From Polyangiaceae bacterium (GTDB lineage Bacteria > Myxococcota_A > Polyangia > Polyangiales > Polyangiaceae): a stretch of 39,528 nucleotides of DNA. The DNA lies in the NCBI GenBank assembly GCA_050287085.1, contig JBNKBE010000035.1:1-39528 (forward strand), read 5' to 3'. A program made the translations under genes and the position numbers. The notes below the pieces were generated by a model. The model saw only the letters and a program-made list of their open reading frames with translations. It ran no database searches and had not been told where the DNA came from. Shown piece by piece: positions 20,173 to 27,049 of this stretch (position 1 is the first letter of the stretch; every line of letters begins with the position of its first letter).

Positions 20173-21771
20173 TTGAGCGACAAGACAGCGTTGAGACTCT
20201 TGCAGGCAGGACTGTTGGTCCTCGGGTTGAGCGCGAGCTGCGGTGGCTCGTCGGAACCCGACGCCAGACGCTCAGGTTCCCGAAGCGATGCGAACAACGA
20301 CTCCAGCGCAGAAGCGGATGCGGCCGACGGCAACACCGATACCAGCGATGGCAACACCGATGCCGGCGATGGCAACACCGATACCGCCGATGGCAACACC
20401 GATACCGCCGATGGCAACACCGATACCGCCGATGGCAACACCGATACCGGCGATGGCAACACCGATACCGGCGATGGCAACACCGATACCGGCGATGGCA
20501 ACACCGCGGCTGCTGCTGGAGACGAGAGCGGCGACGCGGGAATCGATCTCGGTGGTGGAGCAGGCGGCAGTGCCGGTGGCAGCGGAGCTGGCGTCGACGA
20601 CGTGGGGCTCGGTGTTGGTGGCGCGTCTCACGACTTCGGCGGCTCTGCGGGCGCGCCTGGCACTCCAGACTTGACACTCCCGCCCGGCTGTCGTCCCCAA
20701 TCGCCCGAGGAAACCGAAAACCTGTGCCGACTCGTCATGGAGTGCGACACATCGCCGTCAGTTCGGACATATTGCCATCGTCTCGATTCTGGCCGCTGGG
20801 AATGTCAGTGCGCGTTTCACGAGAACCTGTACCAGCTGGAAAACACCGCCGGCCTTCAGGCGTGCGCGCTCGCGGCCGAGCTGTGCTCCGAACCCGATCT
20901 CGAACTCGGTGAGGAGCAGTGTGAGCCCACCACAGAGAGCAGCCACCCAGACGACTGCCGCACCGAGCTCACCTGCGGCCGCCCGATAGCTCTCGAAACG
21001 AGCACGGAGACTCAGGCCTGGCGCGTGCGCATCATCGATGCCTCCTGCCGGCGAGACGGAACCGGAAACACGTTTGGCTGTACCTGTCAGGAAGATGGAG
21101 CAACGGATCGCTACACGCTGCGGGCCAACGGCAGCGATCTCGCTTGCGGGCCGCTCGCTGACTTTTGCATGAGTGGTGCGACCCCCGAGTTCATCGAGGA
21201 GGGGGCCTGCATGCTGAATAGCTTCATGGCTGACAGCAAAACGTGCAACCGGGTCGATGATTGCGGAGCGCAAATGCCGCTGACGGACGACGTCAGCCTA
21301 TTGGAGCTCCAACGCAGGCACGCCACTTGCGGTTCCCTTGAGGGTGGCGGCTCGAAGTGCTCCTGCGGCGGGCTCTTGTTTCAGCTGCCGACTCCCGCTA
21401 ACAGCACAAGCTGTGAGTCATCGATCTCGATCTGCGATCCGAATGCCGTGATCGTTCCGAAAGACCTCTTGAGTTGTGAGCCGCCGTCGGTCCGTCTTTC
21501 CGGGGGGAACCAGTGCGACGCGTCGCTGATGTGCTTGGTGGATGCAACGGTGGACGGTCAAAGCGTCCCGTTCTACGGCGACGTGCAGATCCATTGCCGC
21601 CGCGCCGAGACCGACATGCCATGGGTTTGCTGGTTTCATAGTAGGCAAAATTCCGGTGATATTGATATCGAGGTAGGTGCGGGCGCCGACCCCACGCAGG
21701 CCTGCACCGACGCTTCAGCCGCCATCCTCGAGCTCCCCGATTTCCACGTCAGCATTACCAACTCAGGATGA
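20173..21771 (+). CDS. Cys-rich lipoprotein with Asp/Thr tandem repeats
   Basis: LGLSASC lipobox; (DGNTDTx)8 repeat; Gly-rich linker; several C..C.C modules. Confidence 0.8.
   Translation: MSDKTALRLLQAGLLVLGLSASCGGSSEPDARRSGSRSDANNDSSAEADAADGNTDTSDGNTDAGDGNTDTADGNTDTADGNTDTADGNTDTGDGNTDTGDGNTDTGDGNTAAAAGDESGDAGIDLGGGAGGSAGGSGAGVDDVGLGVGGASHDFGGSAGAPGTPDLTLPPGCRPQSPEETENLCRLVMECDTSPSVRTYCHRLDSGRWECQCAFHENLYQLENTAGLQACALAAELCSEPDLELGEEQCEPTTESSHPDDCRTELTCGRPIALETSTETQAWRVRIIDASCRRDGTGNTFGCTCQEDGATDRYTLRANGSDLACGPLADFCMSGATPEFIEEGACMLNSFMADSKTCNRVDDCGAQMPLTDDVSLLELQRRHATCGSLEGGGSKCSCGGLLFQLPTPANSTSCESSISICDPNAVIVPKDLLSCEPPSVRLSGGNQCDASLMCLVDATVDGQSVPFYGDVQIHCRRAETDMPWVCWFHSRQNSGDIDIEVGAGADPTQACTDASAAILELPDFHVSITNSG
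20326..20505 (+). repeat. 21-bp coding tandem repeat, 8 full copies plus a partial
   Basis: Unit GATGGCAACACCGATACCG(C/G)C read directly. Confidence 0.95.
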
Positions 21772-22137
21772 GCCCCCTACCGGGCCGCTAGTGCTGGGCG
21801 GCAGGGTAGCGGAGCTGGAAGGCAGTGGCGGCCCGCTTCCCCCTTGCTGGCTTCGCCCCATGGGGCGCATAGGACAATCGAACTGGCAAACACGGTGTGC
21901 TGCCGCCTGAACCCTCGGTCCGGAAGAGCTGTCTGGAACATCGTGACGCCAACCCCTTGATTCTTGCAGCACCAGCCCCCTCAGCCCGGACGTCGCGCGC
22001 CACTCGCGCAAGGGAACCAATGCAGGAAACCCCTCCCAGGTTCTTGTTTGCGGTACAAGAAGCTCCGTGTCACAGTCGTGGGAAAAGAGACGACTCGCGA
22101 CGGTTGCGGCGTGAGGCGACAACTCCCCACGAGCACC

Positions 22138-23064
22138 ATGGGCGCCCCTTCCCGCCACGACCCCCCACGAGGTTTGAACGCCTGTCTGCAGGAGCTTCGC
22201 CGCGAGCGCGGATTTCGCGCGGAGGTGGCGCTGGGGCTCAAACAAAAGTGCATCAACGAGTACTTGACGAGGCACGACCTCGACGCCGCGGTCATCGGCG
22301 TGAGCGGGGGGGTGGATTCTGCGGTCGCGCTGGGGCTCCTCCTGGCGGCTTCTCGCGAGCCTGAAAGCCCGCTTCGCCGGGTTGTTGGCGTGGTCGCGCC
22401 GATCCACGGACCCGGCGCGACCGGGCAGGCCCGCGCCCAGTCCCGGGCGCAAAGGGTGCTCAGCGCGCTGGGCGGAGAGCTGTGGCAGTGTGATTTGAGC
22501 GCGGTGCAATCGAGCTATGTCGCGGCGATGGGACACCACTCGTGTTCCACCCCGTGGTCGGAGGGCCAGTTGCTATCCATCGTTCGCACCCCGGCGCTCT
22601 ACTATGCTGCGGCGATGCTTCAGGCAGACGGGCATCGCTCCCTCGTGGTGGGGACGACCAACCGAGACGAAGGGGCCTACCTGGGCTTTTACGGCAAGGC
22701 CTCAGACGGCATGGTCGACCTTCAAGTCATCTCCGATTTGCACAAGAGCGAGGTGGTCGCACTGGCGCGGCTGCTTGGTGTCCCTGAGGAGGTGATCGAG
22801 GCAGCTCCCACGGGGGATGTCTTCGATGGCCGCACGGATCTGGAAATGATAGGCGCGCCGTACTGGGCGGTGGAGCTCTTTCTCTTGGCGCGCTGTGCTG
22901 GCGTCCGCGTCGAAGGCGCGGACGCACGAGAAAACGCACTCTGGCGGTCGTATTCGGAGCTCCTCGAGGCCCGACATACCCGCAACGCGCACAAATACGC
23001 GGTCGGTACGCCTTCCGTTCACCTGGATGTGTATGCGAGACGTGTCCCTGGGGGCTGGCAGTGA
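22138..23064 (+). CDS. nadE: NH3-dependent NAD+ synthetase (divergent, no glutaminase domain)
   Basis: VIGVSGGVDS PP-loop, VGTTNRDE, GFYGKASDG, DLHKSEV, APTGD, TD..MIGAPY and HK motifs. Confidence 0.85.
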   Translation: MGAPSRHDPPRGLNACLQELRRERGFRAEVALGLKQKCINEYLTRHDLDAAVIGVSGGVDSAVALGLLLAASREPESPLRRVVGVVAPIHGPGATGQARAQSRAQRVLSALGGELWQCDLSAVQSSYVAAMGHHSCSTPWSEGQLLSIVRTPALYYAAAMLQADGHRSLVVGTTNRDEGAYLGFYGKASDGMVDLQVISDLHKSEVVALARLLGVPEEVIEAAPTGDVFDGRTDLEMIGAPYWAVELFLLARCAGVRVEGADARENALWRSYSELLEARHTRNAHKYAVGTPSVHLDVYARRVPGGWQ

Positions 23065-23846
23065 AAGAGTTCCGGCCCCCACCTGGCACCCTTCCTGGAG
23101 AGTGGGAGCCGCCGGCATTCGAGCTCGGCCCCGAGAGAGCCGTACGGCCTCGCCAGGTGCACGAGTTTGCCTACGTCGCCCCACGCGCGCTGTCGGCGGC
23201 AGCGTGCGCGCAGCTGTCGGAAGCCATGCGGCTGAGCGGGTGCGCTGCGCCGGTCAGCGTCAGTGGGCACCCCTCGGTTGCGACCGAGCTCGGTTCGGTG
23301 CGGGCAACGGCCTGGGCCCCTCAGCTCGCGTCTGAGCTGTGGCGTTGTCTGAAACACGTGATTCCCCCAGAGCGCCGCATGACGCCCACGACGCCGACCG
23401 ATTGGTACGCCCTCGACGGGCGGCTCGCACACCGGCACTGGCGCGCGGTCGGCATTGGCCCCGTTCTGCGCTTCATGCGCTACGAAGCGGGAGGCCGGCA
23501 TTACGCTCACTACGACATGGGGTTCGACTACCCGGACGCGCGCCGGACGCTGATGTCCCTGGTCGTTTACCTCTCAGAAGCTGCCCCGGGTGACGGGGGG
23601 TGCACCCGGATCGTGCAGGACGGTCAACAAGCGCTGCCGGTTTGGCGCCGCAACCACGAGGACTGGACCCGCGATGTCGCCGACGAGGAAGTCGTGGCGG
23701 CAATCCGCCCCCAATTGGGAGACGTGCTGATCTTCGATCACCGACTTTGCCACGACGTCGAGCCGTACCGAGGACAGTCGAGTCGAGTCATCATTCGTGG
23801 AGACGTCGTTTTTGAGGCGCTCGATCCGGGAGAGACAAGCCAGTGA
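23061..23846 (+). CDS. 2OG-Fe(II) oxygenase (prolyl-hydroxylase-like)
   Basis: RFMRY...HYD, LVVYL, GG.T, GDVLIFDH...HD and R..IR: intact HxD...H...R set; GTGA overlap with nadE. Confidence 0.88.
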   Translation: MKEFRPPPGTLPGEWEPPAFELGPERAVRPRQVHEFAYVAPRALSAAACAQLSEAMRLSGCAAPVSVSGHPSVATELGSVRATAWAPQLASELWRCLKHVIPPERRMTPTTPTDWYALDGRLAHRHWRAVGIGPVLRFMRYEAGGRHYAHYDMGFDYPDARRTLMSLVVYLSEAAPGDGGCTRIVQDGQQALPVWRRNHEDWTRDVADEEVVAAIRPQLGDVLIFDHRLCHDVEPYRGQSSRVIIRGDVVFEALDPGETSQ

Positions 23847-25438
23847 CCTGGAAGCTCGAACGCGACGTCTTCTACAACGACTTGGCGAAGCAGCACGGCC
23901 GTGCCTTCGTAGAAGAGGCCGGCTTTTTCGAGGACACCGCCAGCGCAGACGCGCCCTTGGAGAATGTTCGCCTGCTGTGCACGCCCCTGGGTAGGGCCGC
24001 TTCCAATCTTGCTCGGGCGGCGCGCCCACCGGCCGTCTTGCTCTGCACGGGCGCGTATTGCCCGGTCCATCCGGGGCACGTCGAACTGATGGAGCTGGCG
24101 AGAGCACGGGTAGAACAAGCGGGGTTCTCCGTCATTGGCGGCTACCTCTCGCCGGGACACGACGAGTACCTGCGTCTCAAGTTGAACGACGACGCGACGT
24201 CCGCGCAGCAGCGGTTGACCGAATGTGCGCTCGCCGTGCGCGACTCCGATTGGTTGGACGTCGATCCGTGGGAAGCCCTCTACTGCCGGGTCGCGGTGAA
24301 CTTCACGGATGTCCTGAGGCGCCTCGGTGCCTACCTGGACGCGCACCTGGGCCACCAGGTCACGCCCTTTTACGCGTTCGGCGGAGACAACGCCCGCTTC
24401 TCGCTGACCTTTGCCCAAAGAGGGCACGCGGTCGTCGTGGGGCGCCCCGGCTACGCCGACCGTTTTCAGCACTACCGCGCCCATGCGCTCAACCGCTACA
24501 ACCCCCGCGTGCTGTGGGCCGAGTCGGCCCTGGAGCACTCGTCCACTGCAATCCGGGAAACCGAATTACAACGGAACCCCCGTCTACGGCAGGAACACCC
24601 GACGCATCTATCGCTTCGCTGCGAAGACGCCTCCGTTGCTCCTGGGCCTCCCGTGGCGTGGCGTGACTTTCAGCAGGCGCTCGTGGGTCTGCTCCGGAAG
24701 TGGTTCGTGGTCGAGCTGCGTACCCCGGATGAACGGCAGCTGGTGTTGGAGCCGTCTACGATTAGCCTCGATCCGTTGACCCGCGCAGAGTGTACGATCG
24801 CGATATCTCGCCTGTTCGAACTCGGAGGCTATGCACAAAAGGGCTACACGGCCCGGCCGGGCTCGCCCCCGCTGGCGACGCAGTTGAGCCAGATCCCGCC
24901 GGGCGTCTACGACGTGCTGGACGATGACGCCAGCACAGGAGGGACGCTCTCGCACGTCGCGTCCCTGCTCTGGGCAAAACACTCGCCAGACCTCGAGCCA
25001 GGCCGTTCACGCAGCATCACGATCCAACACGAAACTGCACGCGTCCGGGCGGATGCCGGGGCGGAGCGGCGAGAAATTGCCGATAGCCGAGACTTCCTTT
25101 TGGGAGCCGACCACGCCGGACTGGTGATGACCCTCGGTCCCGATGCCCTAGTTCGCGGTATCTACGCGTACCCCTACGTGGACCCGACCGCCCGCTGTTC
25201 GATCCCCGCCAGCGAGGCCCTAGAATTCTCGATCGCGATCTGGCGCCTCAACGAGACGTTCCACGCGTCGACACAGAATACGGTCGACGACCTGAACACA
25301 CCGCAGCGCGCTCTCCTGCTCCGCGCGGGCTTCGGACCGACCGAACCCCTGAGCGCTGTGTGCCGATGGCACGCCAACCAGTTGGAAAATGTCAGACCGC
25401 CGGATCCCTTTCGTGCAGAGCCGCCCGGTTGCCCATGA
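23843..25438 (+). CDS. NMN/NaMN adenylyltransferase-like (HxGH) domain fused to a type I PRTase-like domain
   Basis: TGAYCPVHPGH, GGYLSPGHDEY..K, SDWLDVDPWEA, GGD and SSTAIR; C-terminal VLDDDASTGGTL PRPP-loop; GTGA overlap. Confidence 0.8.
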   Translation: MTWKLERDVFYNDLAKQHGRAFVEEAGFFEDTASADAPLENVRLLCTPLGRAASNLARAARPPAVLLCTGAYCPVHPGHVELMELARARVEQAGFSVIGGYLSPGHDEYLRLKLNDDATSAQQRLTECALAVRDSDWLDVDPWEALYCRVAVNFTDVLRRLGAYLDAHLGHQVTPFYAFGGDNARFSLTFAQRGHAVVVGRPGYADRFQHYRAHALNRYNPRVLWAESALEHSSTAIRETELQRNPRLRQEHPTHLSLRCEDASVAPGPPVAWRDFQQALVGLLRKWFVVELRTPDERQLVLEPSTISLDPLTRAECTIAISRLFELGGYAQKGYTARPGSPPLATQLSQIPPGVYDVLDDDASTGGTLSHVASLLWAKHSPDLEPGRSRSITIQHETARVRADAGAERREIADSRDFLLGADHAGLVMTLGPDALVRGIYAYPYVDPTARCSIPASEALEFSIAIWRLNETFHASTQNTVDDLNTPQRALLLRAGFGPTEPLSAVCRWHANQLENVRPPDPFRAEPPGCP

Positions 25439-25806
25439 ACGCCCGCATGCTGTCCCCGAGCGCCCCCACGATCTCAGAGAAGACTCCGATGGCAACAATC
25501 TCAGACACACGAGAACAGCTCATCTCGGAAGGGCTCGAGGTCGCTGCCGCGCTCGTCGTTGCTGCTGAGCAGTATCACGTCAAAGATGACCGCCGAGACA
25601 TCCTCGACTACGAGGCAGCCATCGTCGACGCGCACGTTCGATGGCTACGCGACGGCGTCCCGGTGCCCAGCAACCTCGAAACCTCGGTTCTCCTCGGGCC
25701 CTGGGGACGGAACCTCGACTGGAAGGAGTCGTTGCTGCTGCGGCGCGTGGCGGCGTTTCTGGACACCATGGCGAGGTTTCACCGCGCGAAGACTCCAGCG
25801 CGGTGA
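25435..25806 (+). CDS. Small hypothetical protein (start 25435 or 25489)
   Basis: ATGA overlap with the upstream stop; protein-like helical sequence. Confidence 0.5.
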   Translation: MNARMLSPSAPTISEKTPMATISDTREQLISEGLEVAAALVVAAEQYHVKDDRRDILDYEAAIVDAHVRWLRDGVPVPSNLETSVLLGPWGRNLDWKESLLLRRVAAFLDTMARFHRAKTPAR

Positions 25807-26362
25807 CGTTGCGTTCGGCGCGGGCGCTGGGGGGGGCGACCTCGCGAGCTTCGTCAGTTGCGGCGACCACGCCGCATTCAGGTCGAGCGCGCGCCTACCA
25901 CCGCGGCTTTGCACGCGAATGGTGCCTCTCCATGGCGGAGGGTAACCTCGAGGCGCTTGCGCTGCGCGCTGAGGGCACCGACAGTGACGACGCGCGCTGC
26001 GTCACGTGTGCAGAGTTCGTCTATCGCCACCTGCGTGTCGGCACGGGACCGGCAGACCACGACACTGATCGCGAGCCCTTGCGCCACCACTTAGGCGGGC
26101 TCGACTTCGTCTCGTGTGGTTGCTTCTTCCGTTGGGGGCCGGATGCAGCCCGAGCGGGGCGCAGCGCAACCCAGCGCGTGTTGTCGTTCACCCGTATTGC
26201 TCCGCTCAGGAGAACAGCAGTCCGCTCTATGCACAACTGACGAGGAGCACGCTCCTCGTCCTGGGCGCGGTGCCGCCCTCTGCGCGTGTCGTGGCGTGCA
26301 CGGCCGGGGCTGCGGGGGCGTTGCGGTTGCGGAGAGACCGGTTGGTGTTGTATTGGCTCGGA

Positions 26363-27049
26363 ATGCTTCAGATTCTCCAGGAGTGGCTGGCGACGAGGTT
26401 TGAACCTAGACCGATGATGTCAAAAGGCGAGATCGCGGCCACTCAGGCAGTCTGCTCGTTGTTCGACCGACCCCTGCGCGTACTGGAGTGGGGGTCCGGC
26501 TACAGCACGTCCTATTTCCCGAAGCGCTTGACGGCCGGCTCCACCTGGGATGCGATTGAGCACGACGAATCCTGGGCTGGGGTTGTCGCGCGGAATCTCT
26601 CGCGTTGGAGTGTGCCCGGCGCACAGGTGCACTTTGTCCCGGCGAGTCAGCCGTTCGTGGTCGGACGCGGAATTGATGGGACCGAGGCTGAGTTCGCGGC
26701 GTACGTCAGCGCGGTGGAACGATTTGAGCCTGGCGTTCTCGACGTGGCGCTGGTGGACGGGCGTGCGCGGGTTGCTTGCACGAAGCGGGTTTGGCCCAGA
26801 CTCGCTGAAGACGGCGTGGCTATCCTGGACGACGCCAACCGTCCTCACTACGCTGACGCCATTCCTGACGGGGCGGCTTGGGTGGCGCTCCGCGATACTC
26901 GCAAGCTCGTCGACGGGACACCGGTGACCGTGGTCTTCTTCTTCAAGTCCCCGGCGATGTCGGAACGGTTCGAGGCGGCCATTGCGCCCCTACGATCGCG
27001 CAAGGTCGAGGTTTGGGCGGGGCGCCACCCCGAATCCTGGCTGCGGTGA
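26363..27049 (+). CDS. Class I SAM-dependent methyltransferase-like protein
   Basis: VLEWGSGYST, IEHD..W, DVALVDGRAR and ILDD..R..Y motifs. Confidence 0.8.
   Translation: MLQILQEWLATRFEPRPMMSKGEIAATQAVCSLFDRPLRVLEWGSGYSTSYFPKRLTAGSTWDAIEHDESWAGVVARNLSRWSVPGAQVHFVPASQPFVVGRGIDGTEAEFAAYVSAVERFEPGVLDVALVDGRARVACTKRVWPRLAEDGVAILDDANRPHYADAIPDGAAWVALRDTRKLVDGTPVTVVFFFKSPAMSERFEAAIAPLRSRKVEVWAGRHPESWLR

Follow-up and report, generated by a model that had tools for sequence, protein, structure and literature searches.

A mobile gene cassette with an NMNAT-phosphoribosyltransferase fusion: likely a previously undescribed route to NAD or to a close NAD analogue

The window, by which we mean the entire stretch of 39,528 nucleotides analysed here, contains on its forward strand a cassette with the 5' to 3' order NadE-like gene, 2OG-Fe(II) dioxygenase, NMNAT-PRTase, each junction being a GTGA overlap of stop and start. 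The first gene (22135..23064) encodes a divergent single-domain NadE-like amide synthetase that has no glutaminase domain (PF02540, 7e-28); its longest open reading frame begins at 21964, with the ATG at 22135 as the probable start codon, and the relatives of the protein align from about residue 64-80. The second gene (23061..23846) encodes a prolyl-4-hydroxylase-like dioxygenase (PF13640, 6e-9; weak PDB match to bacterial prolyl 4-hydroxylase, E=0.004) with H150, D152, H231 and R246 invariant in 48 rows. The third gene (23843..25438) encodes a fusion of 531 residues, in which an adenylyltransferase domain for NMN/NaMN of eukaryotic type (23969..24598, residues about 43-252, HxGH at 24068-24079) is followed by a C-terminal type I PRTase-like domain (24599..25402, residues about 253-520); the PRPP-binding-type loop of the latter, VLDDDASTGGTL (24914..24949), was aligned to VVVDDLLATGGTM of APRT. 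Upstream of the cassette, at 20173-21771 (+), is a gene for a cysteine-rich predicted lipoprotein of 532 residues, which carries DGNTDT[AG] repeats in tandem close to its start and has no Pfam match; downstream are a methyltransferase-like ORF (26114-27049, +; weak PF13578) and a short ORF (25360-25806, +), neither of which has relatives in the loci fetched.

The fusion at 23843-25438 (+) is a real, conserved gene. We found 171 relatives among 8000 scored candidates, with a query coverage of 93-100% for the 120 of them listed, and 648 clusters at E<=1e-30 in a 50%-identity library; the predicted structure of the whole protein has a pLDDT of 92.9. At source the relatives are annotated as 'nicotinic acid mononucleotide adenylyltransferase' or hypothetical. 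The initial annotation had described an NMNAT domain joined to a type I PRTase-like domain, and both assignments are borne out, with the active-site residues of the two halves conserved in 266 relatives; the N-half motifs that it quoted are present in the product, with the spacing between Tyr and Lys corrected to three residues. The halves do not always travel together intact: the C-half also occurs without NMNAT (phage ME3, L051, L116), HxGH has been deprived of its second His in a Paenibacillus plasmid copy (L111:6974-8266), whose C-half is still strong, and in a 391-kb phage record (G383) the gene is broken by one in-frame stop.

With its Rossmann-like fold, HxGH and SS..R, the N-half has the hallmarks of the HxGH nucleotidyltransferases (NMNAT/NadD group). 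Residues H76, H79, Y109, K113, W143, T155, D182, F190, R201 and S234 are kept in 257-266 of the 266 relatives (for example H76 in 264, H79 and S234 in 265, the aromatic F190 in 261), and R238 in 251; the domain is very probably an active adenylyltransferase. As had been proposed, it is nearer to eukaryotic NMNAT than to bacterial NadD: its best matches in both sequence and fold are eukaryotic NMNATs (human NMNAT1/3, Arabidopsis 9rpk, Chaetomium 9iw1), with which it has the GGYLSP, Y...K, DPWE, GxD and SS..R motifs in common, and the fusion protein reaches only 39.3 bits with the bacterial NadD model TIGR00482, below the curated cut-off of 112.45. It differs from the eukaryotic sequences compared in having HxGH where they have TxMH, with an identity of 24-28%, in its fusion to a PRTase-like domain, and in its hosts, which are bacteria and phages. 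In a quick tree, drawn without canonical eukaryotic NMNAT, the fusion family is one group (97), separate from NadD, and joins (94) a set of stand-alone NMNAT-like proteins. This sister family has members of about 200-245 residues (L054:1369-2067, P0271-P0306), one of them from EukProt.

The C-half has the loop typical of type I PRTases, with a hydrophobic strand, two acidic residues and TGxT. The initial annotation had staked the assignment on conservation of the DD..TGGT loop, which is indeed kept as [DE]-D-D-x-x-[TS]-G-x-T in the 266 relatives; its third position is an invariant Asp (Leu in APRT), and D310, R323, D362, D414, D417 and R438 are kept in 263-266 of them. A profile of 49 C-halves matches APRT first (E=0.006) and then other type I enzymes; PF00156 is matched by 8 of the 49 members, and an hhalign comparison with 25 APRTs returns 62% for a stretch of 52 columns. 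The Atlas search leads to unnamed PRTase-domain clusters at 0.83, which is a lead only, and the type II domains PF04095 and PF01729 have no match in the fusion protein or in the 49 C-halves. Compared with type I PRTases (APRT, HPRT, PyrR, Prs), the C-half has the strand-DD-loop-TGxT-helix-strand unit, which aligns to APRT, but matches neither the N-terminal part nor the hood; it has a DxRD after the loop, a family-specific helical part at its C-terminus, and the fusion to NMNAT. Between DSRD and the LDSRG loop of APRT there is an alignment that lacks significance; the latter precedes the PRPP loop whereas DSRD follows it, and a permutation may have taken place. A single-sequence model of the C-half was unusable (pLDDT 39.6), and the fold searches with the whole model listed no PRTase; their results were filled by the N-half, and they are no evidence against a PRTase fold. 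Taken as a sequence assignment, the C-half is quite probably a divergent derivative of type I PRTases, and its being an active PRTase is somewhat favored. To our knowledge no type I PRTase acts on a pyridine; a literature search by title or abstract start found none, and a search for a pyrazofurin-type analogy gave nothing relevant.

The NadE of the cassette retains the core signature of ammonia-dependent NadE (PP-loop SGGxDS, GTxN..E, the K and D of the FTKxGD loop, HK), scores 85.7 bits against TIGR00552 (cut-off 63.65), and has SGGVDS, N233, E236, K245, D248, K261 and H343-K344 invariant in 46 rows. The canonical motifs of the acceptor site, GN..ARxR and FTK[YFW]GD, are absent: GQ replaces GN (in 49/50 dioxygenase-type rows and 12/12 radical-SAM-type rows), the first Arg of ARxR gives way to a hydrophobic or aromatic residue, and GKASD replaces TK[FW]GD, whether the partner is a dioxygenase or a radical-SAM enzyme. 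The altered columns presumably line the acceptor and ammonia site. The top PDB match of the profile is 3FIU (108.5 bits), the Francisella NadE*, an NMN synthetase according to the available parts of two papers (PMC12143786, PMC3376133). An NMN synthetase in the cassette was nonetheless rejected as a candidate, the lead of 3FIU over ordinary NadE being 7 bits only; 3FIU keeps GN, ARxR and FTKFGD, all of which are changed here. Relatives of this NadE with the GQ and C-K-A-G-D motifs are also found without NMNAT-PRTase (L166, L168 and L169, two of them labelled giant-virus MAG), among genes for glycosyltransferases, UDP-sugar dehydrogenase and methyltransferases; these are possibly amide synthetases for glycans.

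Among 61 distinct loci with both the family NadE and the C-half, 49 have only the dioxygenase, 11 only a radical-SAM gene, 1 neither and none both; these counts are inflated by several near copies, and 6 of the 11 loci had supplied the sequences for the radical-SAM profile. Two radical-SAM families are involved, one RaSEA-like (L047, L055, L154, L161) and one MoaA-like (L036, L157, L160, L162, L164, L165, L167). Two of the RaSEA-like genes score over the TIGR01210 cut-off of 212.15 (220, 214) and three under it (194, 167, 165), whereas for the MoaA-like family the only matches are to models of a generic kind (MoaA-like; viperin, 1.5e-6), none to RaSEA. The genome of the locus with neither enzyme has a RaSEA-like gene elsewhere. 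RaSEA-like genes are present in 3 of the 4 dioxygenase-less genomes vs 2 of the 42 dioxygenase-bearing ones, and a search of the former 4 for the family dioxygenase, run without a positive control, found none. Starting from the MoaA-like family, the full cassette was recovered in 9 of 10 viral loci, 3 of the 9 being contigs already in the set and the rest near kin. In a quick tree of NadE the RaSEA label needs 3 changes, 2 of them forced by starred branches, and the MoaA-like label 2 changes, 1 of them forced; because of these repeated changes the swap appears to be more than one event. The oxidative partner is thus exchangeable, not dispensable. Unrelated radical-SAM genes occur near L030, L002 and L005.

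The C-half is present in 58 of the 61 loci fetched; L054, L056 and L057, which have a stand-alone NMNAT/NadD and no C-half, were left out of the counts. Of the 58, 47 have the family NadE, 49 the dioxygenase and 43 both; 4 of the 11 loci without NadE end at a contig edge. NMNAT and C-half form a single ORF in 53 loci, NadE and dioxygenase in 34, dioxygenase and NMNAT in 16 (15 of which are also fused to NadE), and all four domains in 14; a separate search also yielded ten long fusion proteins. Carriers belong to Myxococcota, Actinomycetota, Bacteroidota, Spirochaetota, Bdellovibrionota, Melainabacteria, Bacillota and CPR, and plasmid copies are found in Variovorax, Streptomyces and Paenibacillus. 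The distribution is sporadic: among 300 other members of the phylum 4 genomes have it, and 40 close relatives gave no full match. The GC content of 0.65-0.67 at the cassette vs 0.63 for the genome is a weak compositional sign of recent transfer. On viral contigs the C-half lies within the flank in 13 of the 19 loci found by the NadE profile, although some IMG/VR records may not be viral; in the cultured phage ME3 a stand-alone C-half with a degenerate loop, and no NMNAT half beside it, directly precedes NadE, and 1.3 kb upstream lies the family dioxygenase. The cassette, with NMNAT-PRTase as its third gene, is mobile and conserved across bacteria, plasmids and phages. A defence system was considered and rejected: the fusion protein has no PADLOC match, and that of the dioxygenase is to a generic 2OG model. 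No paper on the fusion or cassette was found by title or abstract start in a search that excluded subscription journals and supplements, so that a mention in a table is possible; in the accessible text of two Aravind-group surveys the cassette is absent and ME3 is mentioned only for Ter genes.

The cassette is accessory to housekeeping NAD genes. The source genome has, elsewhere, NadA, a glutamine-dependent NadE, NadM-Nudix, NAMPT and NrtR, and of 46 cellular carrier genomes (L017 and L028 were omitted) NAD-synthase matches number at least two in 37, and NadC is present in 41 and NadD in 33. NAD-pathway genes are also neighbours of the cassette, albeit in a handful of loci: a NAMPT operon in the closest relative (L001), NadR and NAMPT in L015, NAMPT in L161, NrtR in L044, a NadD-like gene in L032; a pyrophosphatase gene lies directly upstream in L030 and L031. 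An NrtR-like palindrome is not enriched upstream (8/43, vs 16/43 inside genes). NAMPT-family genes are also present in both of the complete large phages (482 and 391 kb), in one case next to a Prs/Adps-like gene. Two candidate relationships were rejected: an anti-correlation of the cassette with PncB/NAMPT, for which the PF04095 counts (11/46 cellular carriers vs 9/100 other genomes of the phylum) are uninformative, and a role of the cassette NadE as sole NAD synthetase in Obscuribacterales, where all four genomes encode a divergent nitrilase-NadE protein.

Several further gene arrangements were recorded. The nitrilase-NadE protein of Obscuribacterales (about 970-1025 residues) is encoded near NAPRTase-family and NadD matches, and these genomes (G362, G367, G371, G376) have six to seven NadD-like matches each. 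The 391-kb phage record G383 (L147, L149, L060) combines with the cassette Prs/Adps-like and NAMPT-family genes, a QPRTase, and a NadE that has its own small nucleotidyltransferase. A gene of roughly 400 residues that follows NAMPT (L001:4353-5582; in the source genome L077:327-1511, contig C26) has an unassigned N-half and, at the C-terminus, a part resembling HxGH adenylyltransferases; Pfam and TIGR00482 searches of the source genome did not pick it up. An accessory set recurs beside the cassette (L033:3621-6179, L042, L047, L048, L055, L111:8274-8894, L161:8290-8925), consisting of a cyanophycin-synthetase-like ATP-grasp, a methyltransferase-like gene and a 200-residue protein with E.SH.Y and L.DD motifs and no Pfam, PDB or reliable Atlas match.

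The reading that we prefer, by analogy and with a probability of roughly 35%, is that the cassette builds NAD+ from a pyridine carboxylate through an unusual amidation. The C-half would join nicotinate and PRPP to give NaMN, a type I fold standing in for PncB; the N-half would adenylate NaMN to NaAD, which is the best-supported step; the NadE-like enzyme, having no glutaminase and an altered acceptor site, might use an amine, for instance lysine, in place of ammonia as the partner of the carboxylate; and the dioxygenase (with oxygen) or the radical-SAM enzyme (without) would then cut the C-N bond to leave the carboxamide. The sequence base, mononucleotide, dinucleotide, amide fits because three pyrophosphate-releasing steps stand in series, and an oxidative C-N cleavage as fourth step fits because this chemistry is common to the hydroxylase and the RaSEA-like enzyme. 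There is a precedent for adding and then trimming an amine: ArcS works with lysine and not with ammonia, Asn or Gln, after which the adduct is converted by RaSEA (PMC11298593, available part). The same logic fits the predominance of NadE-dioxygenase fusions (34 vs 16). Support for the route as a whole comes from gene linkage, mutual exclusion and recurrent swap of the oxidative enzymes, the altered NadE and the NAD-pathway neighbours; against it count the small number of loci with such neighbours, the lack of palindrome enrichment, the full NAD pathway already present in most carriers, the want of a known pyridine-accepting type I PRTase, the generic matches of the MoaA-like family, the three loci in which the dioxygenase accompanies NMNAT-PRTase and NadE is missing, the degenerate loop of ME3, and the ATP-grasp, racemase and PLP-enzyme neighbours, which point to metabolite tailoring. 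Considered by itself, NAD+ as the end product is somewhat more likely than not, and the same chemistry could yield a natural NAD analogue instead. The earlier idea of a one-polypeptide base-to-dinucleotide enzyme is plausible in that both active sites are conserved, but 'one polypeptide' understated a three-gene cassette; because the fusion is encoded together with NadE and a dioxygenase or radical-SAM enzyme, the end product depends on these partners.

One alternative, somewhat unlikely, is an adenine dinucleotide of non-canonical type as the product, serving as NAD mimic, decoy or signal; it would be made from another base or keep a modified amide, and the oxidative enzyme would tailor it. 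This reading would account for the redundancy of the cassette with housekeeping NAD genes in most carriers, its sporadic spread, the altered NadE site, the extra acidic residue in the PRPP loop, and the recurring ATP-grasp, methyltransferase-like, racemase and PLP enzymes and 200-residue gene alongside; but the NMNAT half retains F190 and the other conserved NMNAT residues, NAMPT, NadR and NrtR are among the neighbours, and no exporter or resistance gene recurs among the 236 neighbours scanned. Both 2OG dioxygenases and radical-SAM enzymes carry out oxidative C-N cleavage. It is thus conceivable, if unlikely, that oxidation comes first, with nicotinate freed or made out of a pyridine that is N-alkylated, reduced or damaged, and with PRTase, NMNAT and an ammonia-using NadE then leading to NAD+. 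The dioxygenase stays beside NMNAT-PRTase in three loci that lack NadE (L013, L016, L017), and an NCS1 nucleobase permease and Nudix gene lie upstream in L037 and L041, as this order would have it, and for RaSEA the cleavage is in the literature (PMC11298593, available part); the dioxygenase is, however, fused to NadE more often than to NMNAT, and the family-wide changes in NadE would go unexplained. Quite improbable is a C-half that only binds PRPP or ribose phosphate (as PyrR and PurR do), or acts otherwise on a nucleotide, with host NaMN as the starting point: the 52 columns of the profile match extend over no more than the strand of the loop, the helix and the strand after it, the helix that follows the pyrophosphate loop in APRT seems to have no clear counterpart in the model, the loop of ME3 is degenerate, and 41/46 hosts make NaMN through NadC, yet D310, R323, D414, R416, D417, R438 and R451 show little or no variation, the pattern that an active site should have. 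Finally, type I PRTases accept purine analogues, PP-loop enzymes amidate deazapurines, and there are a RaSEA-like partner and many phage carriers, but archaeosine-like chemistry on a 7-deazaguanine-type base, serving to modify nucleotides or DNA, is very improbable, with no Que/FolE/TGT family in the neighbours scanned, NAD genes there, and an NMNAT step that gives a dinucleotide, not a DNA precursor.

The routes to NAD are thought to be well mapped, with pyridine PRTases of type II and an amide nitrogen from ammonia or glutamine. Should the proposed route be true, one or both of these rules would be broken: a fourth way to NAD+, tentative as it is, would combine a pyridine-accepting type I PRTase with a NadE using amino-acid nitrogen, later cut oxidatively. 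An NAD analogue as the product would count as a new natural dinucleotide. The interchangeable 2OG dioxygenase and radical-SAM parts point to oxygen-dependent and oxygen-free solutions of one step, and on large phages rich in NAD genes the cassette might serve as a further NAD-reconstitution route, making it a candidate for counter-defence beyond NARP1-3. With three small genes and one myxobacterium-like host, the question is directly testable.

These results can be set against three known systems. Preiss-Handler salvage (PncB, NadD, NadE) has the same three serial activities, if the C-half is a PRTase, but PncB is a type II (TIM-barrel) enzyme whereas the C-half is type I-like, and we know of no dioxygenase or radical-SAM step in that route. 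ArcS/RaSEA archaeosine synthesis is similar in its RaSEA-like radical-SAM partner and in the amine-transfer-then-cleavage logic proposed here; it differs in acting on preQ0 in tRNA to give an amidine, in an ArcS that is TGT-related where the cassette enzyme is NadE, and in having no dioxygenase counterpart reported in the available part of PMC11298593. The NARP systems are, like the cassette, mobile NAD-building genes on phages, and two cassette carriers also have NAMPT-family genes; according to the available parts of the sources, NARP1 consists of Adps and Namat and NARP2 of Nampt and Nmnat (bioRxiv 10.1101/2024.02.11.579819, where 'NadE' and 'oxygenase' have 0 occurrences in the accessible text), and NARP3 of PnuC and NadR (PMC13464706). 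The cassette has none of these gene pairs, and as described there none of the three has NadE, a dioxygenase or an NMNAT-PRTase fusion. In its proposed working the cassette resembles Preiss-Handler salvage or NARP; by gene content it belongs to neither, and it is likely a previously undescribed route to NAD or to a close NAD analogue.
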